The notes: generated from the letters alone by a model not told the origin. A stretch of DNA of 33,708 bases from an uncultured Bacteroidales bacterium (GCA_900554715.1 USIN01000001.1:1-33708); one strand, 5' to 3'; positions 14,285-33,708 are shown, numbered from the stretch's first letter. Made by a program: numbers and translations.

Positions 14285-14384
14285 TTTCTTTACAAAGAAA
14301 CAGACCTCCGGTCTGCAATTTTGTTAACCGCGGGCACTTGTGCCCGTGGGAAGCAAACCCATAACAACCATCAACCCCGGCGGG
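14285..14384. repeat. REP-like cluster of short palindromes (left of IS)
   Basis: Hairpins TTTCTTT-AC-AAAGAAA (14285-14300), CAGACC-TCC-GGTCTG (14301-14315), CCGCGGGCAC-TT-GTGCCCGTGG (14328-14349), then TCAACCCCGGCGGG interrupted by the IS. Confidence 0.6.
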
Positions 14385-15671: not shown

Positions 15672-15734
15672 AACAAATGTTTTTATTATAGAACAATTGG
15701 CATAACCATTTAGAATGTCTTCCGACCACTATAA
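14385..15734 (-). mobile_element. IS4-family insertion sequence, 1350 bp
   Basis: Perfect 20-bp terminal inverted repeats TTATAGTGGTCGGAAGACAT (14385-14404 / 15715-15734); flanking 9-mers CCCGGCGGG (14376-14384) and CCCGCCGGG (15735-15743); markedly AT-rich relative to the neighbours. Confidence 0.88.
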
Positions 15735-15823
15735 CCCGCCGGGGTTGAACCACCATTTGCGCCTTACCTTAATAACCTAACTTAATGACTTTATCGCCGT
15801 ATCGATGGAGCTTCCACCACTTT

Positions 15824-15932: not shown

Positions 15933-15956
15933 ATCCCCGCAATACAAAAAAACTTC

Positions 15957-16004
15957 TGTTCTTCTGCCCTTATGTTCTTCTGTTCATGATTGTGAATTGT
16001 GCAT
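15957..16004 (-). repeat. Dispersed 48-bp heptamer/octamer repeat, copy 1
   Basis: Its reverse complement ATGCACAATTCACAATCATGAACAGAAGAACATAAGGGCAGAAGAACA matches 28608-28655 at 47/48 nt. Confidence 0.9.
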
Positions 16005-19200: not shown

Positions 19201-19597
19201 AACCGTAGCGGTCATATATGTTGCGGCTTATGTCGAGGCTTGACAGCGACCGTGACCGCGAAGTCGACACGCCCTCGCCATAAAATATGATGCCGTCGTC
19301 CCTGCGCATCGTCGCCGTCGGCCGGACATCGTCGGGCAGATCGGCGTCAAATGTCTCTGTGTAGAGGCGTGAACCGCCGTAGCCGTATACCGTCACGCGT
19401 GACGGGTCGTCGAAGCCCCATTCGGCCAGCGTTTCCCGGTCTATCTTGTAAAGACCGTTCCTGTCGACTCTTATCTTGACCCAGCGTCCTTCCGACAGAG
19501 CCGAGCGGTCGGCATAATACGACACGTCGTAGCCGTATGCGGCGACTGTTGTCGCCAACAGGAAGGCTGTGGCCATATTCTTGAACATTGCATTCAT
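16235..19597 (-). CDS. PorU-like T9SS sortase paralogue (gingipain/C25 family), divergent
   Basis: SALSEGRWVKIRV, YGYGG, NLHG, IFNEFSSG, IGRIPV, DDGD, FTGHS (His), ATCST (Cys), GDPA; C-terminal CTD-like domain. Start reassigned to about 19597 (signal peptide follows). Confidence 0.85.
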   Translation of the reverse strand: MNAMFKNMATAFLLATTVAAYGYDVSYYADRSALSEGRWVKIRVDRNGLYKIDRETLAEWGFDDPSRVTVYGYGGSRLYTETFDADLPDDVRPTATMRRDDGIIFYGEGVSTSRSRSLSSLDISRNIYDRYGYYFITEDGGGTGWGSVKAGVAQSSASDHHMSAVVIENDIVNPGKGGGVFHDTEMTPGERRVYNFEITDFHITSGLPPFGIFKYNFGARNEDGETKLAIDMPAVFKEKYRREGSAQRTRGETRLYNTAEGYIQVEPTSADAFVGHSETVGFGLTLDGSTDAEYVAVDRASFCYPRLNRLGDSDYLELRYAQTITFAISESDADVYVWDISDVAAVRPLDVVYDASSSKTMVRNSGSAPAVMKYIAFRAGGDFMKPEYAGEVRASNLHGMPTPEMVIITTGDFVEQARELAAIHGRHGLDVAVVEQSDIFNEFSSGTRSAMGYKRFIKMLYDRGAGRLKHVLLYGPSQWDNRDGAAGGLESLIAYETDIDGCANDASSNYTADSYFVKLSDDYNNSRQYYEVMDVNIGRIPVYSTGVASAVNRKIERHLTSPERALAYGTAVMMSDDGDDNAHLMQSREVMEHMSAANSSMGFVQVHNLIYPWQKKSAVAARATMTSILRRGAGYVSFTGHSRSHDLTGENLWSMADVEKTRYDVSPVAMLATCSTFDFDRRTKTLADAFLDEEHGGMIGVVTSCRQVYMNYNQPFNLKMAECYAGADAGMTVGDLFRTAYNATITNAGFGLAVNTMCYNLCGDPAVPLAAHNRSIKLDDVCGGASELTAPGTMTLTGSVVDGDAVDEDFDGEVYITVYDGPKTLYTVIKDNDKGENNLPVEHDEYILATARGRVSGGHFDMSLSLPYPQRPGVSNRIVVTAVSDNGLSATTVYKDLTVTAATEHEPGSADPTAPEITALYINGRDFANGDVVSGDFTVYGEIMASASGLDVRTEGIGGGVSLILDGKRRLEGLTETLDIVEAGKPTTFSLDVSEVADGRHTLTLSASNNDGIKSSRSIDFIVVNEPLAATLEASEREADEEAELTLVYDSSRQPTVRLVIEDIAGHPVKSVDNAVMPYRWSLDDNDGAKVAPGVYRARCYLNVDGRFGVSDSAEIVVLD

Positions 19598-19644
19598 AAC
19601 ATTTTTCCATTTATCGGCGCCGGTGTGATAGTGCCGCGCCATGC

Positions 19645-20184
19645 TTACTTTATCCTGAAGTCGAGACACTCGATCCCGTTTAATTCTGTTTTAATTTCTC
19701 CGGCGGCCTCCTGCGCGGCGATGTCAAGGCTGTGGCCGGCGAAGACAAGAATATCGCCGGTTTTGAAAGTCATGTGACACGACAGCGCCGCTATAGCCTT
19801 GTCGACACCGAGGTCGCCGAGAGTCACTGACCCCGACAGACTGTTGGCGCTGTAGTCGAGCCGCGTCCCGGCCATGCGCTCGTCGAGCGTCACCCATGCA
19901 CCCTCGATGAGGCAGTTGTCGCGGGCCATCATTACCTCGGGGGCTGTCCACGGCGCCGCCGCCCATTCATTGGGTATGCAGATGCCGACGGCAGATGCCG
20001 AATCATAATAACGTGCTGCGAATTTCTCTTTTATGTGGAAGCCGAGGCGGCTTATCTTTATCGCCGGGCAGACCTTGATGCTCCATTGCGAGGCGTCGTC
20101 GAGGAAGAGGGGCTTGTTGCAGCGCAGCAGTGCCGAGTCGGCAATCAGTCTCATCGTGTCGCCGCCGAGCAGTATCGCTTTCAT
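19645..20184 (-). CDS. Fumarylacetoacetate-hydrolase-family protein, degenerate
   Basis: DSALLR.NKPLFL, ISRLGFHIKEKFAARYYD, MTFKTGDIL, C-terminal LDFRIK; ATGA-coupled to rex. Confidence 0.75.
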   Translation of the reverse strand: MKAILLGGDTMRLIADSALLRCNKPLFLDDASQWSIKVCPAIKISRLGFHIKEKFAARYYDSASAVGICIPNEWAAAPWTAPEVMMARDNCLIEGAWVTLDERMAGTRLDYSANSLSGSVTLGDLGVDKAIAALSCHMTFKTGDILVFAGHSLDIAAQEAAGEIKTELNGIECLDFRIK

Positions 20185-20831
20185 TTGACAACCCCCATGC
20201 GGTTATACATCACCGCCAGATGTGAATAGATCGATGTGTTTGTCACCACTACACCGTCGCGCACCCTGATGCGGTAAGGCGTGAAATTCCACAGGCTGCG
20301 GATGCCTGCGTCCATCATCATGTCGGCCACCGCCTGCGCGCTTTCGACCGGCACAGTGACGATGCCTATGTTGACGTTGAGGCGTTCGACTATCTCCCTG
20401 AGGTCGTCAGGCGAGTAGACCTCGATGCCGTTGATAGACGTTCCTATCAGCTCGGGTGACACATCTATGCCGGCCACGATATTGAGGCCGTATCGTTCCA
20501 GGCCTCTGTCCTGCATCAGAGCGCCGCCGAGGCTGCCCGTGCCGACGATGACAGCGTTGTGTGACTGCATGAAGCCGAGAAACTCGCGCAGGGCCTCTTC
20601 GAGCGACGCGACCTCATAGCCGATGCGGGTCTTGCCCTTGATGTTGAGAAACGACAGGTCTTTTGCAATCTGTGACGAATCGACAGCAAGCTCCTCGGCT
20701 ATCCTGGTCGACGAGACATACTCCACCTTGTCCTTGTGGAGGATGCTGACGTATGCCAGATACCACGGGAGGCGTCTGAGCGTAGGCTCAGGCAGAAGAT
20801 CTTGTGACCGTGACGCGCGATTTTCGTTCAT
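20181..20831 (-). CDS. rex: Redox-sensing transcriptional repressor Rex
   Basis: PEPTLRRLPWY, SSTRIA, QIAKDLS, GKTRIGYEV, GTGSLGGAL, WNFTP. Confidence 0.96.
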   Translation of the reverse strand: MNENRASRSQDLLPEPTLRRLPWYLAYVSILHKDKVEYVSSTRIAEELAVDSSQIAKDLSFLNIKGKTRIGYEVASLEEALREFLGFMQSHNAVIVGTGSLGGALMQDRGLERYGLNIVAGIDVSPELIGTSINGIEVYSPDDLREIVERLNVNIGIVTVPVESAQAVADMMMDAGIRSLWNFTPYRIRVRDGVVVTNTSIYSHLAVMYNRMGVVK

Positions 20832-20909
20832 GACTGCAAATTTACAACAATTTTCCCAAAATCCCGCAACTCCTTAACATTTAATCCTCGACAACGGCTG
20901 TGTCTCGTC

Positions 20910-23900
20910 TTATTCGGCAGTGACGGCGATTTTGCGGGAGTCGGTTTCGTAGTGGTCGCCGTCGGTGCTGATCGAGGCGCGGTAGACATAGATGCCGCGC
21001 TTGACGCGGGCGCCGCTCTGGTCGGTCAGATCCCAGCTGACGGGCGACGAGAGATACATGTCACTCATGCCACGGCTGGTGTCGCTCCAGACGAGTTTGC
21101 CGTTGAGGTTGTAGACCGAAACGGTGACTGTCAGCAGGTTGTTGGGACGGTTGTGGACGAGGTAGAAATTGGCGCGGACCGAGGCGGGGTTGGCGTCGCT
21201 GTAGATGTCGTAGATCTTGGGACGGATGGTGCTGTCGACGACGAAGTCAATCTCTTTTGTGGCCGAGTTGGTGTGGGTGTCCCAGACGCGCAGCATTATC
21301 GTGTGGGGGCCGTCGGTGAGGTCGCTCAGCGGATAGGCTATCTCTCCCGAGGCTGTGCCGTCGGCCGAGGGGGTGAAGTAGTAGGGCACGTCGTTGTAGC
21401 TGCGGTTGCCGTCGAGGGTTATGGTCATCTGATGGCCGACGCCGGCGGTCGAGAGGTTGATGCCGACGTTGTCGCTGATGCGGGCGATGACCATCGGGTC
21501 GGCGTTGACGCGGTCGCCGCTGACGAATGTCGGGTGGTTGATGACGAGGCTCTCGATGACGGGCGCTATGTCGTCGTCAGCGGCCTCTTCGTCAAGGCCG
21601 TAGACATAGAAGTCGCGGCAGACGCCGACAGCCGTGGCGTCGGGCGACGTGGCATACATGTTGAGCGTGGCCTCGCGGAAGTTATCGGCTATCTCGGAGG
21701 GGGTAGCGACGGTGATTTTGAATTCGCCGCCGGTGACTGTCGTCGAGCCCGAGTAGAGTTTGTCGCCGTGGACCTCGAAGGTGATGGCTTTGCCGTCGCC
21801 GTTGCCGTTGGATGTCACCGAGCGGTCGGCGTCGTAGATGTCGATGCCGACGGTGCCGTTGAAGCCGTCGAGTTTAGTGCCGTCGGGCGATTCGATGTGA
21901 CCTGTGAACTCGACGATGCTGCGGGCGGCTATGACAACCTGATTGTCAGTGCCGACGGGTTTGCCGTCGATGCTGTCGAGCACCACGATGTTGTCGGGTG
22001 TGACGGGACGGAGGGCCGGGTCGCCCATGAAGACGTAGCGGAGGCGGTTGGGGTTGCTGCGGTGTTCGCCGCGGCTGTTGCGGATGTCGTTTTTGGCGCG
22101 GCGGTATATCTCGCCGGCGGCCATCAGGCGGCCGTCATCGTCGCGTCGCGCGAGGGCTCGGCCCATGGCCTCTGAGAAGAAGCCGTTGTCGGTGATATAC
22201 ACGGGGCGTGTGGCGCTGATCATGCCGACGGCGCCGCCGTAGCGCTCGAAGAAGAGGAGCTCGCCGCCGCTGACGGTGTTCGAGTCCCAGCGGAGGAAGT
22301 CGCAGGTGGCGGCGTAGATGTAGGGCAGACGCGTGAGATACATCTCGTTGAGGTCTGTGAATGTCAGCTGTTTGTCGTGGGTCCAGGCGTGGTTGTTGGC
22401 GTGGCCGGCGAAGCACCACCACACGACGCCCTCGTTGAGGTAGCGGAACATCTCCTCGCGGGCCAGCGGATAGGCGCCGCCCGATTTGGTATAGGCGTCC
22501 ATGTAGACTTTCTGGATGATATGCTGCTGTCCTTCTGTGGCTTCGAGGGCTTTGACAAGCTTCTCGGCCTGTTCGAGGTGGACGCCGTTGTCTTCGTCGT
22601 CGGCGAGCATCATGATGCGGTTTTTCCATGCTCCGTCGCGTGTGTCGGCGGCGTAGCTGTAGATTTTGTCGACGGTCTGAGCCGCTTCCGAGGCTGAGGT
22701 GACGGGTATGCGGCCTACGGCGATCGAGAGGTCGTCGAGACCCATGTCGCTGCCGCTGTTGTCTTCGAGCATGGCGATGAAGTCGTCGGTGTTGAAGCCG
22801 TCGTTGTCGTTGAGCGAGTAGCGCATCGTTCTTACCTGCCATGCGGGAATGGTCTGGATGCCAAGTTTTTTAACCGCAGCCGACTGATGGCGCTCGTCGT
22901 AGGTCGTGCGGGCCATGATTAGGGCGTAGCGCAGAGGCGTGTCTGAAGCCGCGCCGCGGTCGTAGAGCATCTTGAGGTATTTGCGGAGGGCCGAGACGTC
23001 GGGCATGCCCGAGGCAAACTCGTTGTAGACCTGAGCGACGTCGACGACCTTGACCTTGAGGGCGTCGCGGCTGTTGCGGTGATATTCGGCTATGCGCTCG
23101 GCCTGGGCTTTCCACGCCGGATGGGTGAATATGACCATATTGACCGGCTCTTCGCCGTGGAGGTTCTGATTGCTGACGGCCGACACGAAGGTCGGGGCCG
23201 GGATATTTGCGTCGCTGCGCCAGGCGACATAGCTGCGCAGGCCCGAGTAGGGGTTTGTCCAGACTGCGCGTCCGCCGTCGCTGCCCGTGGCGAGCGTTCT
23301 GACGGACGAAGGTTCGGTGACATCCCAGACGGTGACGCCCGAGGCGTCGGCTCCCGAGAGGTCGAGCGAGAGGCCGGTCGAGCGCTGGCGGAAGGCGATG
23401 TGGCCCGCGGCGGGGAGTTTCAGCTCGCGCTGGTAGTTGACGCTGATATAGTTGAGCCAGGCGCTGTAGACGACCGTCGAGGCTTTGTGGGTGACGGTGA
23501 GGTCGAGGCGCTGGCCGTCGACGGCGGTCTCGTGGCGGGCGATGCCCTCGGTGGCGTGGACATAGACGCTGTTTGATGTCGCGGCGATGCGGTCTGAGTT
23601 GTTGGCTGTCAGGTCGGTGCCGTTGACGTTGAAGGTGAGCTGCGATGCGGCGTTGTAGGTCTTGGCGACGAACGACACCTCGAACCACACTTTGTCGCCG
23701 CTCTTGTCGGGCATGGTGAAGCTGAACTTGCGGGTGGGGGTGAAGCGGAAGTCCTCGCCGACGAGCATCGGGCCGGCCTCGCCGGGCGACACGAGTTCTT
23801 GCTCGTAGTGGATGAGTTCGACGAAGTCGGTGGCGGGCGACTCGGCTGTGCCGCGGCCTATGGTCTCGATTTCGGGCGATGGCTCGTCGCTCTCGCCGAT

Positions 23901-24338
23901 GAAATAGTAACCGGCTTCGGTATAGAGGTTTGTCGACTGTGTGTAGCGGTTTGTGGCCGACTGTGTCCACTCTTCGGGGCCTACGCCGTAGAAGACTATG
24001 CCGCCGTCTTTGGCGCGGGCTATGGCTGTCTGGGGGAGGTCGTCGACATAGTTGGCTGCGTTGAGGATGTCGGCGATGCGGCGTCCGCCGTAGCCGAAGA
24101 CTCTCACTCGCGAGGGGTCGCTGAAGCCCCATGAGCGCAGGGTCGAGACGGGAATCTTGTAAAGGCCCGACGAGGGGACGGCGACTTTGACCCAGCGGCC
24201 CGAGGCGAGCACCGAGCTGGCGGCGTAATGGTCGAGACTAAGGGCTTTGGCCACAGGCGCCAGCGCCATGACGGCGATGATGACTGCGGCTGCGCGGAGT
24301 ATGATATGACGGTAGGTTTTCTGCATTGTGTTGTTCAT
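20910..24338 (-). CDS. porU: Type IX secretion system sortase PorU
   Basis: SVLASGRWVKV, NQNLHG, YNEFASG, TDDFIAMLED, VGRIPV, ADDED, VYMDAY, FAGHA (His), ATCDFLRWD (Cys), SATRPVY, GDPAL, GVGHQM; C-terminal CTD. Confidence 0.9.
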   Translation of the reverse strand: MNNTMQKTYRHIILRAAAVIIAVMALAPVAKALSLDHYAASSVLASGRWVKVAVPSSGLYKIPVSTLRSWGFSDPSRVRVFGYGGRRIADILNAANYVDDLPQTAIARAKDGGIVFYGVGPEEWTQSATNRYTQSTNLYTEAGYYFIGESDEPSPEIETIGRGTAESPATDFVELIHYEQELVSPGEAGPMLVGEDFRFTPTRKFSFTMPDKSGDKVWFEVSFVAKTYNAASQLTFNVNGTDLTANNSDRIAATSNSVYVHATEGIARHETAVDGQRLDLTVTHKASTVVYSAWLNYISVNYQRELKLPAAGHIAFRQRSTGLSLDLSGADASGVTVWDVTEPSSVRTLATGSDGGRAVWTNPYSGLRSYVAWRSDANIPAPTFVSAVSNQNLHGEEPVNMVIFTHPAWKAQAERIAEYHRNSRDALKVKVVDVAQVYNEFASGMPDVSALRKYLKMLYDRGAASDTPLRYALIMARTTYDERHQSAAVKKLGIQTIPAWQVRTMRYSLNDNDGFNTDDFIAMLEDNSGSDMGLDDLSIAVGRIPVTSASEAAQTVDKIYSYAADTRDGAWKNRIMMLADDEDNGVHLEQAEKLVKALEATEGQQHIIQKVYMDAYTKSGGAYPLAREEMFRYLNEGVVWWCFAGHANNHAWTHDKQLTFTDLNEMYLTRLPYIYAATCDFLRWDSNTVSGGELLFFERYGGAVGMISATRPVYITDNGFFSEAMGRALARRDDDGRLMAAGEIYRRAKNDIRNSRGEHRSNPNRLRYVFMGDPALRPVTPDNIVVLDSIDGKPVGTDNQVVIAARSIVEFTGHIESPDGTKLDGFNGTVGIDIYDADRSVTSNGNGDGKAITFEVHGDKLYSGSTTVTGGEFKITVATPSEIADNFREATLNMYATSPDATAVGVCRDFYVYGLDEEAADDDIAPVIESLVINHPTFVSGDRVNADPMVIARISDNVGINLSTAGVGHQMTITLDGNRSYNDVPYYFTPSADGTASGEIAYPLSDLTDGPHTIMLRVWDTHTNSATKEIDFVVDSTIRPKIYDIYSDANPASVRANFYLVHNRPNNLLTVTVSVYNLNGKLVWSDTSRGMSDMYLSSPVSWDLTDQSGARVKRGIYVYRASISTDGDHYETDSRKIAVTAE

Positions 24339-24361
24339 CTTTGTAATAACGCGGCGGGGCG

Positions 24362-25114
24362 TTATTTATTGTGCTTCATAGCATTTGTCGGCTCGAAGGC
24401 GGCGAGCCAGCGGGTCCAGTCGGCGCTGTCGCCGTTGAAGGTGTTGAGGTCGACGTCGCCTTTGATGCCGTCGACGCGGCTTCGGTGGCTGTGCTGCCAG
24501 AGGGTCCATCGTCCGCCGGCGAGGGGCGGGTTGGTGAAGGAGCATATCCAGACGGGACGGTCGTCGAAGCGTCCGCTGATATAGCGGCTTATGCCGCGTT
24601 TGTTGGAGTAGATCATCACCTTGCGTCCGGCCGAGTCGAGGCTGTTTATCATGGCTCCGAGTCGTGCGGCGACGAGGCCGGCGTTTATGTCGTCGGGGTT
24701 GCCGTTGTCTTCGACATCGATGGCGAGGGGGAGGTCGAGGTCGAGGCTGTCGACGACGCTGAGGAAGTGGCGTGCCTGGCGGTCGCCGTCGCAGTCGAAG
24801 CGGAAGAAGTGGTATGCGCCGACCTTGAGGCCGCTTGTGCGGGCTTCGCCGTAGTTGCGGGCGAACTCGGAGTCGCAGAAGCTGACGCCCTCGGTGGCCT
24901 TTAGGACGACGAAGTCGACGCCGTCGGCGGCGACGCGGCCGAAGTCGACACGTCCGTTATGGGCCGAGAGGTCAACGCCGACGACGGGGTATTCGTCGCG
25001 GGGCACGTCGACGTATGGGTCGCGGGCGGCGGTCATGCGCAGCAGCGCCGTGGCGAAAATCGCCACGCCGGTGACGCCCACGATTGTGCTCGCTATGATT
25101 CCTGCTTTGTTCAT
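24362..25114 (-). CDS. GH25 muramidase (lysozyme) with an N-terminal membrane anchor or signal
   Basis: GVDLSAHNG, KATEG, GAYHFF, AIDVE (DxE), WQHS, VDLN. ATG 25114 lies 5 nt after TAATTTTG (25120-25127). Confidence 0.92.
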   Translation of the reverse strand: MNKAGIIASTIVGVTGVAIFATALLRMTAARDPYVDVPRDEYPVVGVDLSAHNGRVDFGRVAADGVDFVVLKATEGVSFCDSEFARNYGEARTSGLKVGAYHFFRFDCDGDRQARHFLSVVDSLDLDLPLAIDVEDNGNPDDINAGLVAARLGAMINSLDSAGRKVMIYSNKRGISRYISGRFDDRPVWICSFTNPPLAGGRWTLWQHSHRSRVDGIKGDVDLNTFNGDSADWTRWLAAFEPTNAMKHNK

Positions 25115-25188
25115 CTTTACAAAATTAGCCAAATTATCCGGCGCAGCCATAGATTTTTATGTTTTTAACAAGATGGATTCGGGCTTTT

Positions 25189-27027
25189 TTACCATTTGGG
25201 CGGGAGGACGGGCGCGGGGCCGGCGAGACGTGTCTGACGGCTGCGGAGGGCGCGGAGGGCCATGGCGCGGGTCATGACGATGTCGTCGTTGAAGCCTGCG
25301 CGGGCGCCGTATGAGCCGTTGCGGCGCTGTTCGTAGGTGAGGAGCTCGTTGCAGGCCTCGGTGTCGCGCTCGGTGTAGGCGCCGTCGCGGACGGCCTCGA
25401 TGAGTCCGGAGACGAGGGCGGCTTTGGTCGAGCGGTTGGTGTGGAAGCCGAGGCGCTGCGAGGCACGGCCGTCGCCGTCGAGGGTCTCGCGGCGGTAGAG
25501 GTGTCGGTAGGTCTCGGCCAGGCGGCTGAGGATGAAGAGGTTCGAGTCGGCTCCGCCGTCGGCCTCGCATTCGAGGGTGTTGCTCTCGACGATGAGCAGG
25601 GCGTCGTTGTAGAGTCGCCCGACGGCGGCGCATTTGGCGGCCAGACGGTCGTGGTCGAGGTGTCCGCGCCACTGGGCGACGATCTCGTGACGGCGCATGC
25701 CCTCGCCGCGGCGCATGACGGCGATGACCGACCAGTCGCTCTTGACCGAGCGTCCGCCGACATCGACGGCGGCGACATATTCGGCTTTGTCGTCGGGTTT
25801 CTCCCATATCTGCAGGCCGCCGGCAGGGTCTTCGACGAGCGCGCCCGAGCTGTCGGCGTCGGCGGTCATCAGCGGCTCGAGGCAGTCGCCGCGCAGTCGC
25901 TCGACGTCGGCGGGATCGAAGACGCCGCTGCCTGTGGCGGCGAAGGCTTCGGTGTCGGTGGTGGGAAACTCGGCCATCATCATCTCGTGTGACAGGTATT
26001 CAGACGATTTGAGGCGGTACCAGTAGATCTGCTCGAGGGTCAGGCCCATGTTCCAGAGCGACCGCTCGTATGGGCTCATTGAGGTGATGACGGCCTCGGG
26101 GTCGTCGACGGGTACTGAATAGAGCTCGATCTCATACCAGGGGACGAAGACGGCGCGCTTGTCGCCGCGTCCGTCGCGGCAGCGCAGCCACTCGCTGTGG
26201 AAGTAGTTGCCGATGCCGTTGGCGGTCGACTCCATGACTATCAGCGAGTAAGGCATCAGTGCTATCGAGCCGCAGACGGCGCGGACGAGTCCTTCGGGGG
26301 TGTGCTGCGGTGTCGAGGGCCAGAAGGCGGTCTCGGAGAGGTGGGCCATGGCGTAGTCGCTGCCACGGACGGCTTCGTGGTTTTCGGCAGAGCCGACGGT
26401 GACGCGGCATCCGCGGCCTGTGATCTCGCGGACGTTGAGCGAGCGCTCGTAGGGGCGGAACATCGGACGCTCGTCGCCTTCCCAAAGGTCTTCGGGGTAG
26501 TCGGCGAGCATCTTGGTGTACATGCCGCGTATGCCGGCGGCAGTGTCTTTGACGTGGGCGCAGATGAGCGAGTGCCAGTTGCGGCGGTGGCACGACTGTA
26601 TCCATGCCATATACATCTGGATGAGGGTCGAGCCTCCCCACTGTCGGGCCTTGAGCATGATGAGGCGTATGGGGCGTCCGGCGCGGCGGTCGGCTTCCAT
26701 GACGGCGGCGACGCGGCGCTGGGGGCGGTTGAGTCTGAAGGCTACGTCGGTGCCGAGGGTCTTGTGTTTGACTCTGACGCAGGTGACGCACCAGTATTCG
26801 AAGTCGTGGCGGCAGCGGAGGGTTTTCCATTGCTCGGGGCCTGTGGCGACGGCATACTGCGGGTCGTCGGTCATCTCTCGCGGCACGAAGGCTCGCGGGA
26901 GGCCTTCGACGGGTGTGGCGACCTCGATGCGGTCGCCGGAGCATCCGATGCCTCTGACGGGGTCGAAGTCGGTCTCGAACGCCCGCAAGCGACGAGTGTT
27001 TTCTTGAATTATTTCTTTGATATTCAT
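25189..27027 (-). CDS. Phage-type terminase large subunit (ATPase + RNase H-like nuclease)
   Basis: LNRPQ adenine-binding motif, Walker A LKARQWGGST, Walker B HLSE, coupling motif MESTANG, FVPWY; nuclease acids AVDVGG, SDWS, VESN, DDIVM. Confidence 0.9.
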   Translation of the reverse strand: MNIKEIIQENTRRLRAFETDFDPVRGIGCSGDRIEVATPVEGLPRAFVPREMTDDPQYAVATGPEQWKTLRCRHDFEYWCVTCVRVKHKTLGTDVAFRLNRPQRRVAAVMEADRRAGRPIRLIMLKARQWGGSTLIQMYMAWIQSCHRRNWHSLICAHVKDTAAGIRGMYTKMLADYPEDLWEGDERPMFRPYERSLNVREITGRGCRVTVGSAENHEAVRGSDYAMAHLSETAFWPSTPQHTPEGLVRAVCGSIALMPYSLIVMESTANGIGNYFHSEWLRCRDGRGDKRAVFVPWYEIELYSVPVDDPEAVITSMSPYERSLWNMGLTLEQIYWYRLKSSEYLSHEMMMAEFPTTDTEAFAATGSGVFDPADVERLRGDCLEPLMTADADSSGALVEDPAGGLQIWEKPDDKAEYVAAVDVGGRSVKSDWSVIAVMRRGEGMRRHEIVAQWRGHLDHDRLAAKCAAVGRLYNDALLIVESNTLECEADGGADSNLFILSRLAETYRHLYRRETLDGDGRASQRLGFHTNRSTKAALVSGLIEAVRDGAYTERDTEACNELLTYEQRRNGSYGARAGFNDDIVMTRAMALRALRSRQTRLAGPAPVLPPKW

Positions 27028-27060
27028 AGTGGTTAGAAATTAAGATTGAAGAAAATTTTT

Positions 27061-27190
27061 AGACAGAAAGACAGAAAAAGAACAAAAGAACATAAGTACA
27101 CAAGAACATAAGAATATAAATATTATGTTCTGTTTGTTTTTATGCCTAAAAAACTTTTGTTCTTATGTGTTTGTGTTCTTGTGTTTTTCT
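27061..27190. repeat. Degenerate octamer (AGAACATA-type) repeats in two inverted arms
   Basis: AGAACAAA/AGAACATA/AGTACACA units at 27061-27118 face TATGTTCT/TGTGTTCT units at 27124-27190. Confidence 0.75.
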
Positions 27191-27254
27191 TTGACGGACG
27201 GAAGGACATAAATCATAGTTTTGGGACAGGAGAAGCTGAGGATGCTTCGGACGG

Positions 27255-27324
27255 TGCAAAGTTAAGGCTGTCAGGGGCGGTTTTTATTACTAAAATCGTT
27301 ATGAGGTGCAATTTTAGAATTCCG
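27255..27324 (-). promoter_or_regulatory. Promoter with palindromic operator upstream of the terminase (copy A)
   Basis: TAACTTTGCA (27255-27264, minus strand) plus ACTAAAATCG-N10-CAATTTTAGA (27289-27318), then ATTCCG. Confidence 0.75.
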
Positions 27325-27486
27325 TGGTAAACAGGACTAATCAGTAAAAAAAATATGTGGCGCATTTCAGCCGTTCCATGCCGGTTCTGTCTGACAGTTC
27401 AAAGTGGATTAGACCACAGGTGTTTATGAGTTTTATTGGCGATTTTGGATGCAAAGTTGATTTTTTTGCTTTTTTTTTAACAAAAG

Positions 27487-27518
27487 CTTGCTTTTTGAAC
27501 TTTGTTATCGTATTTTTG
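27487..27518 (+). promoter_or_regulatory. Sigma-A promoter for the AT-rich lipoprotein gene
   Basis: CTTG (27487-27490), 20-nt spacer, TATTTTTG (27511-27518). Confidence 0.6.
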
Positions 27519-27701
27519 CGAAAATTACTTACCTAAAAATAAAATTTCATGAAAAAACTCCTCATTTTAGCTGCATCCCAATCATTCCGATTAGGTACTC
27601 GCCAACATAGCTTCTTAAAATTATGCAGGTGAGGTATTCAAAGCCGGTGATTATACTTACTCTAAGAACCTAAAAATGATAACAATAAAATAATTAGAGA
27701 T

Positions 27702-28511
27702 ATGAAAACGACTAAAATAATATTTGCAGGTCTGGCGGCTTTGTTTATGGTTTTTATGACGGCATGTTCGGATGACCCGCAGTCGTCAGAGGACAAGGCA
27801 AATCCTAAGAATTTTGTCAAGAAAGGAAAAATCGTGCAGGGCGAGATTGACTATAATGTGCTCAGCCGATATTCGGCCGCTTTGAAGGATGCAACTTATA
27901 CGCGTAGTAATACAAAATATTATTTTCAAGATGATTTAACCAAAGGTAGATGGGAAAAAGAAGATGCTGCGGTTGGTCAATATCCCAGTACACCTAAATA
28001 TATTGTAATAAAAGAAGGTGCATGCTGGGAGGCGTTTGAGCCTAATTACAATACTGGTCATGCACAGTATATATCGGCAATGTTTGCCCTAAATCTTGCT
28101 ACAGGAAAAGAATATAATGTTATCTTGAAAAAAGATTTGACTGTTGATGAGGCTTCTAAAACGATTACGATTGGCTCGAAGAATTTTGAGCTGTTGTACG
28201 CTGACTCGGAGTATCTTGTAGTAGGCTTCAAATCGACATATCAAGGCGGTCGAACCCACAATGGCGGGGAAAGTTTAGAAATTTCCTCATACTCCTTGTC
28301 TGAACCATTCGTTATGAAAGATACTCCTTTAGCATTTGATTCATTGCGAGATGCATATGATTGGCTTATTGACACATTCCGTGAGCGTTTTGGAGAATCA
28401 GCTGATTTAAATAAATATATAACCTCTGCAATATACGATAATCCGATGGTCTATCTGAGTGATCTGATTGCAGAACGCGATTATTATGTATCTCTTGAAG
28501 ACGGTGAATAA
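27702..28511 (+). CDS. AT-rich lipoprotein of unknown function
   Basis: Lipoprotein signal ...FMTA-C followed by acidic SDD; composition sharply more AT-rich than the neighbouring genes. Confidence 0.85.
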   Translation: MKTTKIIFAGLAALFMVFMTACSDDPQSSEDKANPKNFVKKGKIVQGEIDYNVLSRYSAALKDATYTRSNTKYYFQDDLTKGRWEKEDAAVGQYPSTPKYIVIKEGACWEAFEPNYNTGHAQYISAMFALNLATGKEYNVILKKDLTVDEASKTITIGSKNFELLYADSEYLVVGFKSTYQGGRTHNGGESLEISSYSLSEPFVMKDTPLAFDSLRDAYDWLIDTFRERFGESADLNKYITSAIYDNPMVYLSDLIAERDYYVSLEDGE

Positions 28512-28521
28512 GCTAATCGTA

Positions 28522-28580
28522 CTCTCTGTGATACAAAGGGGCTGCAACGCAAGTTGTGGCTCCTTTTGTATTACAGAGAG
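28522..28580 (+). terminator. Terminator hairpin after the lipoprotein gene (possibly bidirectional)
   Basis: CTCTCTGTG-ATACAAAGGGGCTGCAAC-GCAA-GTTGTGGCTCCTTTTGTAT-TACAGAGAG forms an extended stem with a GNRA loop. Confidence 0.75.
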
Positions 28581-28589
28581 AAAGGGTTA

Positions 28590-28856
28590 ATCAATTCACA
28601 ATGCATAATGCACAATTCACAATTATGAACAGAAGAACATAAGGGCAGAAGAACATAAGGGCAGAAGGTTTAATCAATGCACAATGCACAATCTTTTTCA
28701 ATGCACAATGCATAATGCACAATTCACAATTCACAATTAATTGGGTTATCGGAGGCTATCGGAGTTATCGGAAGGGTCGGACTTGTCGGACAAGGTCGGA
28801 CGGGTCAGACGGGGTGGGCGATGATTGTGCATTATGCATTGTGAATTGTGCATTGA
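28590..28856. repeat. Composite simple-repeat array: AAT(G/T)CA(C/T) heptamers, CAGAAGAACATAAGGG duplication and TCGGA(C/G) core, with inverted heptamer arms
   Basis: Heptamer runs at 28591-28623 and 28674-28737, inverted run at 28824-28856, about 9-10-nt TCGGA repeats at 28747-28810; includes the 48-bp copy at 28608-28655. Confidence 0.85.
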
Positions 28857-31363
28857 TGCAGCCGGAGGCGGATGAGGTGGAGGGCGAGGCTGGAGGAGGT
28901 GGTGGCGGTGAGGGTGACGGTGTAGCGGGCGGCGGCGGGGCCGAGGTTGCGGAGGGTGAGGGGTGCGCCGATGCGTCCTTCGATGTCGAAGGCGGCTGTG
29001 GGGGCCGAGGCTGGGTTGAGCGATGAGTGGCGGGTCAGCGATAGGGTACCTTTGAGGTTGGTGGCGCCGATGTCGGCGTCGAGGGCGGCGACGACGGCGG
29101 GACGACGCCCGGGGGTGTCGACGGTGACGCTCCAGGCGATGTCGGTCGCCGAGGGTGCGACTTCGTTGACGAGGCTGACGACGCTGCTGCCGTCGGTGGC
29201 GTAGACTTCGGCTGTCGTGTCGTCGGCGATGATGCCGGTGAGTGCGGGCAGGCTGCGGGTGTAGCGCCCGAGGTCGTGGTCGGGGCAGATGACGGTGGCG
29301 TCGCCGTCTGCGCCGCCGAGGCAGAGGAGTTCGCGCCGCAGGGCTATCCAGGCGAGGGCATTGGCGTCGATGCCCTCGGCGACTGTCTCGGCCGACGAGG
29401 AGGTGACGCGGATGAGCTGACGGGAGGAGGTGAGGGCATAGATTCTGCCGTCGACGGCAGTGACGGCTGCCTGTGAGGCGACGGTGCGGCGGTCGATTTC
29501 GAAGAGGTCGGTGTCGCCGGGGCCGGTGATGGCGAGGGTGTGGATGCCGCTGTCGGCGAAGACGGTGAAGCGCTGTTGGCGGACGGTCAGTGACGAACGG
29601 TTGTAGCGGCTTACCGCCAGGGCGTTGACGCGGCCGCGCGAGAGGTCGGCGATGGCTGTGGCGCTCAGGGGCGAGAGGCTGCGGGCGACGGCCATCATCG
29701 ACTCGCAGCGGTGTGTGGCGGGGCGCTCGGCGGGGATGACGTAGGCTTCGGCGACGTCGGCGAGGGCGAAGGGACGGAGGGTGGGATGGACATAGACGGC
29801 CATGTCGCCGGCGACGGGGGTGAGGTCGAAGGTCTGTGTGACGGGGTCTTCGCCCTCGACGGAGAGGCATATCTTCATCTTCGATGCGCGAGCCGAGGGG
29901 TAGCAGATGAGGGGGCTGAAGAGCTCGGGGGCGTCGCCGTCGCCCGAGGCGAGGCTGACGACCGATTCCTCGGGGTCGGCGACGGAGGCGGTGAGGTCGG
30001 TCCAGACGGCGGCGCGCCATCGTCGGGGCTTGGTGCTGACGGCAAACGAGCGGGCCGACCAGCCCCGGAAGAAGCGCTGTGTGAGGTCGCCCCAGACAGT
30101 GGTGTCGCCCGAGGCGACGACGACGCGGGCCGAGAAGGTGTGGGGCGCGGCAAACATCAGGCTTTTGTCCCAGCGGGGCGCGAAGGGTGCGGCGAGGGCG
30201 CGGGCGAGGGTCTCACTCTCGTCTGCGGCGGTGGCGGCGCCTGTGGCGGTGAGGGTGAGGGTGGTGCCTGCCGCCGAGGCGAATGGGTCGCCGAGGGTCA
30301 GGACGGGGCGCTCGATCGAGTCGAGCCGGGCGATGCTCTGACGCAGGAGGTTCTCGGCGGCGCGGGCTGTTGTGGAGGCGAGGGAACGGGCGGTGCCGGG
30401 CCATGAGGCGCGCATGACGGTCTTGTCGGTGGTGCTGCGTATGACGGCGTTGCAGCGGGCGGCGAGCGTGAAGTCGACGGGATGATACTGGGGCGTGACG
30501 AAGAGGCGCAGCTGAGTGGCTGCGGCGGCGACACGCGGGGCGAGCGAGTGGGCGGGGACGGTGAGGCGGATGCGATAGGTGTCGGCCGAGATAGCGACGG
30601 GGTGTGTGACGGTCATGTCGTCTGATTTGAGGGCGACCGAGTCGGTGAGCTGTGTGCCGGCCGGGAGCGACACGACGACGGGCGGCGAGACGTAGATGAC
30701 GGTCGAGTCGGCGTCGTAGAGACGGTAGCGGCAGATGACGGGCTGGAAGAAGGCTCCGTCGGCGGCTGCCTGCCGGGCGATGTCTTCGTAGGCGTCGTTC
30801 ATGGCGGCGGTGACGCGGGCGCGCTGGGCGGGGTCGACGCAGGTCTTGCCTTCGGCGAAGCTTTTGTCGAGGCGTATCGGGGCGATGGTGGCGACGGCTT
30901 TGGCGGCGGCCACGGCGGTGACGGCGACTTCGGGGAAGGTGGTGTCGGGTGTGATGACGGCGATGTCGCCGGGCGTGTCGCCGAAGATGACGGTGGTGGC
31001 TCCGCGGTCGGTCATGACGGTGAGACGGCGCCCGGCGGCGGTGGCGCAGAGGGGTTCGGCATCGAGGGTGGTGACTTCGACGGCGTCGGGCATCCACTGC
31101 GAGAGGTCGAGGGTGGCGAGGGTCTTGCCAGAGGCGACGGCGAGTAGGCGGCGTCCGTCGGCGAGGGTGATGACGGCGAGGGGACGGTAGTGTCCTGCGG
31201 CGACGGGGGCGGGACGTCCCGTGGGGACGAGTTCGGGGGCTCCGTCGGGCGAGGGACGCAGGTTGTGGCAGACGGTGACGCGGCAGTCGGGGGCTTCGCT
31301 GTCGGGATGCGCGAGTCCTGCGGCGACGCAAAGGTCGACGGTGCGGGATGATGTGTTTTTCAT
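28832..31363 (-). CDS. 843-aa high-GC hypothetical protein, possibly a phage-derived tail tubular/nozzle-like structural protein
   Basis: Long ORF with host codon bias, an AT-rich start and its own promoter; no signal peptide. Segments such as CHNLRP..GAPELVP, GAFFQPVICRYRLYD..IYVSPP, YPSARA and FTVFADSGIHTL recall large Bacteroidales phage virion proteins (from memory, unverified). The ORF is reliable; the function is inferred. Confidence 0.55.
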   Translation of the reverse strand: MKNTSSRTVDLCVAAGLAHPDSEAPDCRVTVCHNLRPSPDGAPELVPTGRPAPVAAGHYRPLAVITLADGRRLLAVASGKTLATLDLSQWMPDAVEVTTLDAEPLCATAAGRRLTVMTDRGATTVIFGDTPGDIAVITPDTTFPEVAVTAVAAAKAVATIAPIRLDKSFAEGKTCVDPAQRARVTAAMNDAYEDIARQAAADGAFFQPVICRYRLYDADSTVIYVSPPVVVSLPAGTQLTDSVALKSDDMTVTHPVAISADTYRIRLTVPAHSLAPRVAAAATQLRLFVTPQYHPVDFTLAARCNAVIRSTTDKTVMRASWPGTARSLASTTARAAENLLRQSIARLDSIERPVLTLGDPFASAAGTTLTLTATGAATAADESETLARALAAPFAPRWDKSLMFAAPHTFSARVVVASGDTTVWGDLTQRFFRGWSARSFAVSTKPRRWRAAVWTDLTASVADPEESVVSLASGDGDAPELFSPLICYPSARASKMKICLSVEGEDPVTQTFDLTPVAGDMAVYVHPTLRPFALADVAEAYVIPAERPATHRCESMMAVARSLSPLSATAIADLSRGRVNALAVSRYNRSSLTVRQQRFTVFADSGIHTLAITGPGDTDLFEIDRRTVASQAAVTAVDGRIYALTSSRQLIRVTSSSAETVAEGIDANALAWIALRRELLCLGGADGDATVICPDHDLGRYTRSLPALTGIIADDTTAEVYATDGSSVVSLVNEVAPSATDIAWSVTVDTPGRRPAVVAALDADIGATNLKGTLSLTRHSSLNPASAPTAAFDIEGRIGAPLTLRNLGPAAARYTVTLTATTSSSLALHLIRLRLHQCTIHNA

Positions 31364-31391
31364 ATATTATATAGTGTGAAGGTTTTGATGT

Positions 31392-31461
31392 TGCAAAGTT
31401 AGTATGGCGTGAGGGGAGTTGTGTGTCTAAAATTGTAGTGGCGTGCAATTTTAGATTTCCG
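31392..31461 (-). promoter_or_regulatory. Promoter with palindromic operator upstream of the 843-aa gene (copy B)
   Basis: TAACTTTGCA (31392-31401, minus strand) plus perfect inverted repeat TCTAAAATTG-N10-CAATTTTAGA (31426-31455), then TTTCCG; same spacing as copy A. Confidence 0.78.
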
Positions 31462-31468
31462 CTATGCG

Positions 31469-31547
31469 AATGCACAATGTACAATGCACAATTCACAATT
31501 CACAATTCACAATTCTTCGCAAGCGAAGAATTTTGCATTGTGCATTG
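31469..31547. repeat. Heptamer array folding around a perfect hairpin
   Basis: AATGCAC/AATTCAC units, then AATTCTTCGC-AA-GCGAAGAATT (31511-31532), then inverted TGCATTGTGCATTGA. Confidence 0.8.
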
Positions 31548-31585
31548 ATTTAACCTTATGCTCTTGTGTTCTTTTTGTTAAAATG

Positions 31586-31653: not shown

Positions 31654-33609
31654 ATGAAACACTTTTACACGAGCTTTATGCTACTTTTTGCCGCGCTTTT
31701 CTGCTCGGCACAGGTTGTGACTGACCGTCCTGAGGGTACGATGAAGTACTATCAGCGCACGGGCGGTCTCACTTATCTCAATGACGGCCAGCAGCTGCAT
31801 CTCCAGAATCAGTCGGGCTTCACCGAAATCGTCTACTCGGCCGACGGCACCAAGGCGTGGGTGAAGAATCCGGTCGCGGGCTTCTTTCCCGAAGACAGCG
31901 AAGAATGCGCCTGGGTCGAAGGCCGTCTGACCGACAACGGGTCGACAATCGAAGTGCCTGTAGGCCAGAAGGTATATTTCGGAGCCGAACAGAACGACTA
32001 TGTCGAAATCGCTATCGTCGACCGCGACAAGTCGTCGCACACGACCAATTTCATCTATAACGCGACCGAGGCTGCCGTCATCTATAAGATCGAGGGCGAC
32101 AAGGTCAGCGTCACCGGCACTTCGCGCGACCGCCTTCTCGGTCTGGTATGGTCGTCAGACCGTTCGTGGCTCGGATTCGGCGACTATGAGAGCGTCTATA
32201 CGATCTATGACCTGCCCGAGCCTGTCACTCCGCCGGCCGGCATGACTGTCAAGACTTATCCGCTGAGCGCCATCGAGTATATGAACGAGCAGGATGCCGT
32301 CTACTCGACCGAAGTCAATGTCGGCTTTGACGGCGACGACGTTTATATCCAGGGCTTTGACAAATTTATCCCGATGGCGTGGCTCAAAGGGCGCCTCAAC
32401 GGATCGCGCGTCACGTTCGACGTGCAGTATATCGGCACAGACCCTGCCGACCGCCGCCACTTCCTGGCCGGCTGGAAGGGGGGTGCCGTGGGCCCGGTAG
32501 AGATAAACTACTATAAGGACCTCGACGCTTTTGAAAGCACGTCGCCGGTGATGATCAACTCTAACCCGACGATGCACAACTATTATGCCTACTACCGCAG
32601 CATGTATATCGGCGAGCGCCCCGACCCGATCGAGCTGCCTGCCGGCGCCAACCCCGTGCGCATGGTGCTGAAAGGCAAAATCGATGATACGGGCCTGACC
32701 GCCCGCGACTTTACGCGCGTCGTCAAGCTCGCCAACGTGGGCGACAAGGTCTATATCCAGGGCCTAAGCACCGACGTTCCCGAAGGCTGGGCGATGGGTA
32801 CTCTCGCCGACGGCAAGCTGACGATACCCCGCGGCCAGTTTATGGGCTTCGGCGAGCAGGCGGCGATCTATCTCCACGGCGCCGACGCCAAGACGGGCGA
32901 GTTCCGCGACATCGTCTTCGACTATGACGAGGCTGCCAACACGTATATCCACAACCATATACTCTATGAGTGCACGGCCCGCGAACCCCGCACATATACA
33001 TGGCAGTATCTCCCCGGTCTGACAATCTACTATGATCCCAACGCCCCGACAGGCGCCGACCCCGACGACCTTCCCGCAACCGACTATATCTTCAAGGCCC
33101 AGTGTATGTCTAAGATAGCTGCGCTGACAGGCACGAGCGCCGAGCTGAAGGTCAAGATAGCCGTCGACGGCAATCTGGTGTATATCAAAGGTCTGTCGCC
33201 CGAGACTCCCGACGCGTGGATCAAAGGCGAGATGTTTGACAACACCGTCACTTTCGCATCGCCCCAGCTCCTGGGCGACAACGGCTCGTATAACATCTAC
33301 TTCAGCGGCTACGATATGCTCGCCTATGCGCTGAACGACTGGACTCTGACGTATAATCCGGCCGACGGGTCTTACAAGACTTCGGCCCACGCTGTCATCA
33401 ACCGTTCGGTCGACCGTGTCAACTATGACATCTGGTATTATAATATGTCGTTTGTCAAAGATCCGGCGGGCGTGGCCGACATCGCTGTCGATAACGCCGG
33501 TGGCGAGGCTGTCTACTATAACCTCCAGGGTGTCCGTGTCGACAATCCCGACCGCGGCGTCTATGTCAAGGTTGCCAACGGCAAAGCTGAGAAAGTCCTG
33601 GTTAAATGA
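31654..33609 (+). CDS. Secreted repeat-domain protein, probable T9SS cargo
   Basis: Signal peptide; 3-4 internal repeats (VYIQG...P.AW.KG....VTF..Q..G); C-terminal GVADIAVD..YYNLQGVRVDNP..GVYV...KVLVK resembles a T9SS sorting domain. Confidence 0.8.
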   Translation: MKHFYTSFMLLFAALFCSAQVVTDRPEGTMKYYQRTGGLTYLNDGQQLHLQNQSGFTEIVYSADGTKAWVKNPVAGFFPEDSEECAWVEGRLTDNGSTIEVPVGQKVYFGAEQNDYVEIAIVDRDKSSHTTNFIYNATEAAVIYKIEGDKVSVTGTSRDRLLGLVWSSDRSWLGFGDYESVYTIYDLPEPVTPPAGMTVKTYPLSAIEYMNEQDAVYSTEVNVGFDGDDVYIQGFDKFIPMAWLKGRLNGSRVTFDVQYIGTDPADRRHFLAGWKGGAVGPVEINYYKDLDAFESTSPVMINSNPTMHNYYAYYRSMYIGERPDPIELPAGANPVRMVLKGKIDDTGLTARDFTRVVKLANVGDKVYIQGLSTDVPEGWAMGTLADGKLTIPRGQFMGFGEQAAIYLHGADAKTGEFRDIVFDYDEAANTYIHNHILYECTAREPRTYTWQYLPGLTIYYDPNAPTGADPDDLPATDYIFKAQCMSKIAALTGTSAELKVKIAVDGNLVYIKGLSPETPDAWIKGEMFDNTVTFASPQLLGDNGSYNIYFSGYDMLAYALNDWTLTYNPADGSYKTSAHAVINRSVDRVNYDIWYYNMSFVKDPAGVADIAVDNAGGEAVYYNLQGVRVDNPDRGVYVKVANGKAEKVLVK

Positions 33610-33680
33610 TGCACAATGCATAATGCACAATCGGATGATTAAGAACATAAGATCATAAGGACATAAGAACAAAAGAATAG
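33609..33680 (+). repeat. Heptamer plus octamer repeat unit after the gene stop
   Basis: ATGCACAATGCATAATGCACAAT followed by AAGAACAT/AAGATCAT/AAGGACAT/AAGAACAA. Confidence 0.8.
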
Positions 33681-33708
33681 TTTTAAACAAGAATAAGGCC
33701 ATAGGGGC

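Follow-up and report, generated by a model that had tools for sequence, protein, structure and literature searches.

The locus described here raises a simple question: why do two genes of phage-like appearance carry the same palindromic element in front of their promoters, and what does this element control? The locus lies in a stretch of 33,708 nucleotides (nt) from an uncultured Bacteroidales bacterium (GCA_900554715.1 USIN01000001.1:1-33708), hereafter the window, meaning the whole stretch analysed; its genome (G000) is 70% complete and divided into 300 contigs. The motif is, in our assessment, very probably the operator of a regulon. The more specific interpretation that we prefer, and to which we give an even chance, is that it is the predicted operator of a dedicated, lineage-specific activator controlling a domesticated set of podophage late genes, with a multi-locus function resembling that of a gene transfer agent (GTA).

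A first-pass annotation had placed the two copies of the motif at 27255-27324 (copy A) and 31392-31461 (copy B), and both were present there with the letters as given. Both lie on the gene (minus) strand and read CTAAAATTGCA-N10-ATTTTAG, followed by 25 nt and then by the -7 box TAACTTTGCA; the -7 consensus of Bacteroidota is TAnnTTTG (PMC7366714; this and all other papers cited here were covered in excerpt). The copies are identical at 48 of 70 positions. In a search of the window, the two sites accounted for four strand-matches with up to three mismatches, compared to 0.02 expected from 100 shuffles. A palindrome of 30 base pairs (bp) had been proposed for both genes; this holds for copy B, with its 10-bp arms, while copy A has arms of only 7 bp. 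The ideal operator, as read from the close relative G117, is a 28-bp sequence, CTAAAATTGCA-N6-TGCAATTTTAG, spanning -53 to -26 when numbered from the first T of TAnnTTTG. The inverted repeat had been located at or just upstream of the -33 region: its end does lie just upstream, but there is no overlap with -33. Neither promoter A nor promoter B has a TTG at -33, in line with that annotation, which saw no canonical TTTG box there.

The two downstream genes are terL, encoding a large terminase, and a gene for a protein of 843 amino acids (aa). For both, the phage-like character proposed earlier was upheld as a phage-derived origin. The ATPase and nuclease motifs of TerL are intact and invariant across 17 aligned sequences. 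The 843-aa sequence itself gave no match in PHROGs or Pfam; a profile of its family matches phrog_32516 proteins (883-913 aa) encoded by related prophages and by two isolated Bacteroides phages, with E values down to 2e-92 for a phage outside the alignment. The ESM features of the protein score 0.93 against clusters with crAss_MUZ in 17-18% of their members, which is a lead only, and a PDB sequence search with the profile returned just weak BamB beta-propeller matches (E 0.01 or worse).

The motif had been thought to be absent from the other promoters of the window. The window does hold only two sites, but three more complete sites and two sites cut by contig ends were found elsewhere in the genome; of the cut sites, contig C163 ends in a left half and contig C10 begins with a right half. 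At all five complete sites, the distance to the -7 box is exactly 25 nt. With a matrix built from them, these sites score ~29, and the next best among 1327 -7 boxes scores 8.4. The further sites precede a phage-type amidase gene with a lipoprotein gene (C23) and two copies of a short gene (C3, C26) that is described below as a terminase fragment; C10 carries a remnant of this gene and C138 its 3' part. In G117 (99% complete) there are 27 operator sites, 21 of which are the perfect palindrome. The -7 box stands at 25 nt in 25 of the 27, the other two being cut by contig ends. The targets of these 25 sites are the terminase fragment (20 sites), terL, the 843-aa gene and the amidase gene (three in all) and contig edges (two). 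The pattern search across this and related genomes that had been suggested as a check thus linked the motif to phage-derived genes in both G000 and G117. In both genomes, conserved boxes at a fixed spacing were found before unrelated genes (terminase, 843-aa, amidase and terminase-fragment copies), and a selected binding site is therefore predicted, in agreement with the selection proposed in the first-pass annotation. The exact G000 operator was sought in 40 relatives and found in none of the 24 congeners, with one stray match in another family. Among the genomes compared, its sequence is thus lineage-specific, recurring only in G117.

A palindrome of this kind might instead be a repressor site, or no more than the terminus of a selfish repeat cassette spread along with a multi-copy gene. 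Bacteroidetes LexA-like repressors have palindromic operators (PMC8565304), and 20 of the 25 G117 sites are part of a single recurring cassette, which has a conserved 3' end and lies among repeats resembling repetitive extragenic palindromes (REP). We nevertheless consider both variants very unlikely: the site lies upstream of, not over, a core promoter that has no -33 TTG, the same site precedes the single-copy terL, 843-aa and amidase genes, and other lineages pair other gene families with other operators. The SOS box of the LexA-like repressors shares with our motif its palindromic form and the outer letters CTAA...TTAG; it differs in its spacer (5 nt between CTAA and TTAG, compared to 20 nt here), in serving a repressor rather than a probable activator, and in preceding repair genes rather than phage-derived ones (PMC8565304). 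An SOS reading was rejected, as the present sites are not GGA-N5-TCC or CTAA-N5-TTAG boxes before repair genes.

The type of promoter was judged from the -33 position. Across four genomes, none of the 66 operator promoters has a TTG there, compared to 128 of 358 background promoters of G000; many of the 66 are paralogues and not independent, so that n is inflated. Even among the background promoters only 36% have this TTG, and some Bacteroidetes are known for a weak -33 motif (PMC7366714). The absence of the TTG from all 66 promoters makes an activator geometry likely, and together with the fixed distance between operator and -7 box it supports the activator-like arrangement proposed earlier. 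By these features, the operator promoters are likely to be of an activator-dependent sigma-ABfr type. The RNA sequencing runs consist of low-depth assembled contigs, possibly containing DNA, in which phage-like and housekeeping genes are covered alike; they are uninformative on expression.

Comparison with other members of the genus and family indicates that each genome has one operator at the same place, with a sequence that changes by lineage. Within a genome, the capsid and 843-aa promoters are alike at 18.6 of 40 nt, compared to 14.3 between genomes (permutation p 1e-5, 18 genomes). Some within-genome excess appears in a control window too (9.5 vs 7.6 of 22 nt), so part of this signal reflects base composition. 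In G042, a GGAC/GTCC-type site, present in 10 of 14 pattern matches, leads the head operon, the 843-aa-terL operon, a holin-like gene and five Pfam-confirmed DUF6291 genes. Lin1244_N genes follow five of six fetched sites in G047; two AAA-like genes (G012) and a holin-like gene and the amidase pair (G005) stand behind the operators of their own genomes. The closed genome G217 contains 20 exact sites of GCGACATTATGGGGTG, before the head operon, the 843-aa-terL operon, an endolysin gene, a lipoprotein gene, rlmH, two short frames and 13 DUF6291-like paralogues (two of the three scanned match the family, one of them above the cut-off, and two of the 13 were judged from 5' DNA). In closed G228, 17 sites precede head, adaptor-portal, 843-aa-terL, amidase, DUF6808 lipoprotein and AAA_25 genes, one terminase fragment, six DUF6291-like genes (with weak Pfam matches in two of the four scanned) and four unclear targets. 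Backward patterns, used as a control, gave no matches in G217 or G228. From the targets in G000/G117, G042, G217 and G228, it would follow that the ancestral regulon held all of these classes and that different lineages amplified different truncated genes.

The genes behind the operators belong to a set found throughout the family, the Muribaculaceae. The head operon of G000, located on contig C12 by means of proteins of congener prophages, comprises a scaffold remnant, an SU10-type capsid gene, a 185-aa adaptor-like gene, a P22-like portal gene and genes for 144-aa and 150-aa proteins. Among 36 congeners, the capsid was matched in 33 (four of these weakly, to the prophage type only), TerL in 32 and the 843-aa protein in 30. 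In the family as a whole, the capsid was matched in 237 of 250 genomes that are at least 90% complete, representing 29 of 29 genera, and 223 of these matches were at E<1e-40; the weak matches came from 14 genomes, 12 of them in a single genus (g53). Other families, sampled by 24 single genomes, gave no match for capsid, terL or the 843-aa gene. The loci are separated by 47 kb to >900 kb in five genomes that are closed or nearly so. Distances for TerL, capsid and RuvB are correlated (rho 0.44-0.56, p<0.005, 21 genomes, excluding those without one full gene), and in an unrooted TerL tree six phage or prophage sequences stand apart from 17 chromosomal ones with support 1.0. The ratio of nonsynonymous to synonymous substitutions (dN/dS) between G000 and G117 is 0.06 for the capsid, 0.07 for the portal, 0.18 for TerL, 0.25 for the 843-aa gene and 0.24 for the 144-aa gene; altogether, eight core genes and the amidase gene range from 0.06 to 0.25, with 0.5 for the lipoprotein and 0.03-0.10 for five control genes. 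Neither a flanking integrase nor a phage replication module was seen at the loci that were read (12 for terL, and those of the head operon), and the initiator- and helicase-like genes of the regulon are mostly truncated and scattered. Judged from these comparisons, the set is domesticated, dispersed, vertically inherited, with a mostly single-copy core, and under purifying selection. A prophage or prophage remnant was rejected as an explanation: the set is single-copy in ~90% of the family and scattered, with dN/dS well below 1.

Some genomes depart from this pattern. In genus g53, 12 of 21 genomes have just a weak prophage-type capsid match, and part of the genus has apparently lost the chromosomal set or let it diverge strongly. 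In some closed genomes, the set is interrupted or rearranged (L403, L408, L410, L411): an insertion sequence (IS) separates the 843-aa gene from terL in G250, the capsid frames are split in G242 and G228, and terL occurs without the 843-aa gene in G242. Genome G007 (contig C25, ~18400-29200; locus L073) has a compact 11-kb cluster between host genes, encoding portal, TerL, a 141-aa protein, scaffold, capsid, fibre, lysozyme and ring proteins. Its divergent promoters are separated by a palindrome, TAAGATA-N6-TATCTTA. A search of this genome for capsid and 843-aa genes of the chromosomal type was negative, and the cluster may represent a recent domestication or a satellite.

Among isolated phages, the nearest are BF1-TP2, BS-TP4 and BKO1-TP3 of Bacteroides (PQ571263, PQ571277, PQ571269). 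Together with the congener prophages, they encode homologues of the capsid (37-38% identity), the portal, TerL, the 843-aa and 144-aa proteins and, weakly, the 150-aa protein. Unlike the chromosomal set, the genes of the three phages lie together in genomes of 64-68 kb, which also encode giant proteins, fibres and replication functions, and their TerLs fall in a separate clade. Late promoters of BS-TP4 and related prophages (L067-L072, L413) carry AGATAA or AGTTAA ending 24 nt before the -7 box; none is listed at the equivalent promoters of BF1-TP2. This late motif differs from the operator in sequence and position, and the operator with its -7 box has no exact match in IMG/VR; direct activation by a phage activator is therefore not supported.

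The genes that follow most of the operator sites are truncated. The short multi-copy gene of G000 and G117 is, by alignment and structure prediction, a dead terminase-ATPase fragment. Its family aligns to the ATPase domain of TerL (hhalign probability 93.5, E 2e-7), the best Foldseek matches of its model are the terminase ATPase domains 8dgc and 4znl, and it has neither the Walker A lysine nor the Walker B glutamate; pairwise BLAST against TerL was not significant. Comparison of three copies from G117 gave 96% identity and a dN/dS of 0.08-0.11, i.e. purifying selection, and 13 matches to the fragment were found in G046 and four in G043. Sites driving truncated phage proteins make up 20 of 25 in G117, 13 of 20 in G217 and 8 of 17 in G228, with five Pfam-confirmed cases each in G042 and G047. 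A conserved non-coding element ending in CACATTGACAT lies just 3' of terminase-fragment genes in G117 (L311, L318, L319, L320) and G043 (L122, L127, L129, L132); it is possibly a cis site or the end of the cassette, which appears to multiply without a transposase.

This preponderance of truncated genes suggests a different reading, an anti-phage decoy and suicide regulon, in which the operator would respond to related P22/crAss-like Bacteroidales phages, being switched on when they infect the cell or are induced in it. The truncated initiators, the helicase-like proteins and the dead ATPases would then be dominant-negative, the short portal, scaffold and capsid would divert virion parts, and holin and endolysin would lyse the cell early. 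Such a role would account for a fragment with the TerL ATPase fold that has dead motifs and yet is kept under purifying selection; homologous prophages are present in the same genus, no fibre gene was found, and blocks of assembly or packaging have precedents in Tab (PMC10884400) and TerI (10.1101/2025.02.27.640495). We regard it as rather unlikely. Intact terminase, capsid and portal genes kept in ~90% of the family are more than a poison needs, the operator is unlike the phage late motif and without exact counterparts in IMG/VR, none of ten proteins was matched by PADLOC 2.0, and Tab is one small constitutive protein and not a regulon (PMC10884400).

The preferred GTA-like interpretation starts from the unlinked operons that the operator leads: a head operon (scaffold remnant, capsid, adaptor, P22-like portal), the muzzle-like gene with the large terminase, and lysis genes (holin, endolysin and spanin-like lipoprotein), the amidase, holin-like and spanin-like genes being under the same operator. 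It also leads families expanded in particular lineages, namely the Walker-less terminase ATPase, DUF6291 or Lin1244_N replication-initiator N-termini, and AAA_25. In the model, a host signal would derepress the unit encoding the 144-aa and 150-aa proteins; a dimeric activator would bind the palindrome just upstream of -33 and recruit RNA polymerase with the housekeeping sigma factor; and the packaging, tail and lysis operons would be switched on in a minority of cells. These cells would build small-tailed capsids, fill them with host DNA and lyse, in the manner of a multi-locus GTA, with the truncated proteins tuning packaging, stopping host replication or blocking related phages. In untreated mice, Muribaculaceae DNA makes up 19% of the transductome on average, which fits this model, although no gene cluster is named in the excerpt (bioRxiv 10.64898/2026.07.08.737213).

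The best candidate for the activator, at slightly under even odds, is the 144-aa protein, whose model (pLDDT 92) has two helix-turn-helix (HTH)-like halves with weak winged-helix matches. Its gene was found in 29 of 36 congeners (in four of them only in prophages), usually paired with the 150-aa gene, and the protein is homologous to the product of a phage gene beside divergent late promoters; in Atlas it falls in unnamed clusters only. The gene has its own promoter in 15 of 22 genomes examined, with a -33 TTG in all 15 and the operator in none. Where a separate promoter is missing, the head-operon promoter tends to the ordinary -33/-7 form, and in G000 and G117 this operon has the 144-aa gene and an ordinary promoter in place of the operator. 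A matrix built from the 144-aa promoters of 15 other species ranked the G000 head-operon promoter first of 820. The position of the gene outside operator control fits an activator, unlike a small terminase. The 144-aa promoters share a TGCAA-N5/6-TTGCA motif, conserved across species, at which a conserved host repressor may bind and gate the whole system. Beside the -7 box this motif is accompanied by CAAT-N4-ATTG, both upstream of position 10625 (plus strand) of G000 contig C12 and at the 144-aa promoters of 15 congeners (L329-L356); it has ATTGCA in common with the G000 operator half-site.

A number of results weigh against the GTA-like interpretation or its parts. Regarding the operators, the base-composition component in the control window was mentioned above; in addition, no motif is shared between the capsid and 843-aa promoters of G000, G001, G002, G011 and G052, and 7 of the 37 sites in G217 and G228 lie before host genes or no clear gene. 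Regarding the activator, the 144-aa gene was not found in G250 nor in 7 of 36 congeners, the G000 and G117 versions of its product share only 67% identity despite their common operator, and its model gave no Foldseek match at E<=0.001, the best Z of 7.0 (winged-helix) being within the range of chance arrangements; the protein could also be a small terminase, as its gene lies upstream of terL in phages. The portal is 434 aa long, shorter than the 526-657 aa of its prophage counterparts, and of the scaffold only a remnant of 50-150 aa is left. Most operator sites drive truncated proteins, unlike any GTA in the literature covered. The tail-fibre N-terminus of the related phages was not found in G117, G042, G217 or G228, but was found in the control G013 (divergent genes may be missed), and no operator site of G217 or G228 has a fibre or ejection gene behind it, which leaves DNA delivery unexplained. 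A search for giant ejection-like proteins was negative in all ten genomes, including two whose prophages carry such proteins, and was thus insensitive.

Head, packaging and lysis modules without detectable fibres could also point to particles or lysis with another purpose, either tail-less capsids borrowing the fibres and ejection proteins of a helper phage, as satellites do, or programmed lysis releasing protected DNA or vesicles into the gut biofilm. We hold this to be quite unlikely, as no integrase, origin or att sites were seen at the loci read, and the genes, being scattered and vertically inherited, do not form an element that could preferentially package itself. A tentative and somewhat improbable combination of the readings above would be that one podophage was turned into a dual host system, consisting of a family-wide capsid, motor and lysis kit and of lineage-specific, amplified dead enzyme fragments (up to ~20 near-identical pseudo-terminase cassettes per chromosome) under one fast-changing operator. 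The cassettes would then be either distributed points of packaging or replication arrest of the first Bacteroidota GTA, or dominant-negative decoys poisoning related phages in the DNA-releasing cell.

The coordinates of the features of the window are listed in the table.

Table. Features of the window at and around the two operator promoters
Feature	Coordinates	Strand	Remarks
GH25 muramidase	24362..25150	-	38 nt downstream of terL; regulon membership uncertain
Large terminase terL, 612 aa	25189..27027	-	phrog_2, E 1e-21; single copy
-7 box TAACTTTGCA, promoter A	27255..27264	-	25 nt downstream of operator; 228 nt before terL start; TTG-less -33
Operator copy A	27290..27317	-	Imperfect 28-bp palindrome, 7-bp arms, upstream of terL
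269-aa lipoprotein-like gene	27702..28511	+	Separates terL from 843-aa gene; AAGAACAT and TGCACAA arrays on its flanks; outside regulon
843-aa podophage tail muzzle/nozzle-like protein (putative function)	28832..31363	-	Profile matches to phage proteins
-7 box TAACTTTGCA, promoter B	31392..31401	-	29 nt before 843-aa start codon; TTG-less -33
Operator copy B	31427..31454	-	Upstream of 843-aa gene; extension to 31426-31455 gives 10-bp arms

Most congeners transcribe the 843-aa gene and terL as a single operon from a single predicted promoter, and by this comparison the two-promoter arrangement of the window is a derived state. The window has two operator copies because the 269-aa gene splits the ancestral two-gene operon and terL has a promoter of its own; given the single promoter of most congeners, copy A may have arisen by an old duplication and then have been kept by selection. 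The muramidase gene may be co-transcribed with terL; it adjoins terL in G000 and G117, but in none of the 12 other congener loci read.

REP-like arrays of the 8-nt repeat AAGAACAT and the 7-nt repeat TGCACAA/TTCACAA, in both orientations, occur in the window at 15953-16004, 27064-27188, 28593-28856, 31455-31573 and 33594-33699; such arrays are common at contig ends throughout the genome and also lie beside several operator sites. The window further contains an IS element (14371-15748) with a DDE transposase gene (14385-15671) and perfect 34-nt terminal inverted repeats, and two paralogous genes for C25 (PorU-like) peptidases (16235-19669 and 20910-24338) around a Rex-type regulator gene and a 179-aa gene. 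Elsewhere in G000, contig C40 (1-7944) holds a separate prophage remnant that ends at a tRNA-like sequence and has fibre-like genes, a holin, an endolysin and a spanin-like gene; no operator was found there.

Muribaculaceae dominate the rodent gut, and the species of G000 was detected in rat gut sequencing runs. If the proposal is true, ~90% of the family would have a built-in system of transducing or anti-phage particles, and the main model microbiome would thus have a major route of gene flow, or means of phage control, that has gone unrecognised. The operator offers a handle on this system: a single pattern search lists the regulon in any genome and names a candidate activator, which would make the system inducible and testable in cultured members of the family. 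No description of it was found in the open PMC and bioRxiv literature (subscription papers and bioRxiv supplements lay outside that search), and no Bacteroidota GTA is named in the open literature covered; the excerpt of PMC12946183 lists no Bacteroidales GTA and mentions only lateral transduction in Bacteroides. The motif is real, very probably regulatory and part of an apparently undescribed family-wide system.

Among known systems, Tab, TerI and Tai (PMC11364771) resemble the present one in being host-side proteins aimed at the terminase or virion assembly of related phages. By their descriptions in the excerpts, they differ in being single small genes of prophages or islands, without a chromosome-wide regulon that has its own capsid and motor. 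The closest likeness in organisation is to RcGTA with its activator GafA (PMC6363796) and CcGTA with GafYZ (PMC11150451), where phage-derived head, packaging and lysis genes also lie in several unlinked operons, one dedicated activator serves scattered promoters, and the genes are vertically inherited without a replication or integration module. GTA features, as defined in PMC12946183, that are found here at the level of genes are the chromosomal phage-derived head, portal and terminase genes, their dispersed operons, vertical inheritance with purifying selection, and co-controlled lysis genes. Our system, in which no match to GafA or GafY was seen (no search aimed at them was made), differs from both in its podophage ancestry (P22-like portal, SU10-type capsid) and Bacteroidota host, in an operator that changes with the lineage, in the 5-20 truncated phage-protein copies under this operator, and in that no fibre gene was found. 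FpGTA of Faecalibacterium (PMC12946183) has a Gram-positive host and is encoded by one 10.5-kb operon plus a few others, unlike the set described here; like it, FpGTA is podovirus-like, near-ubiquitous in a gut commensal and devoid of replication genes.

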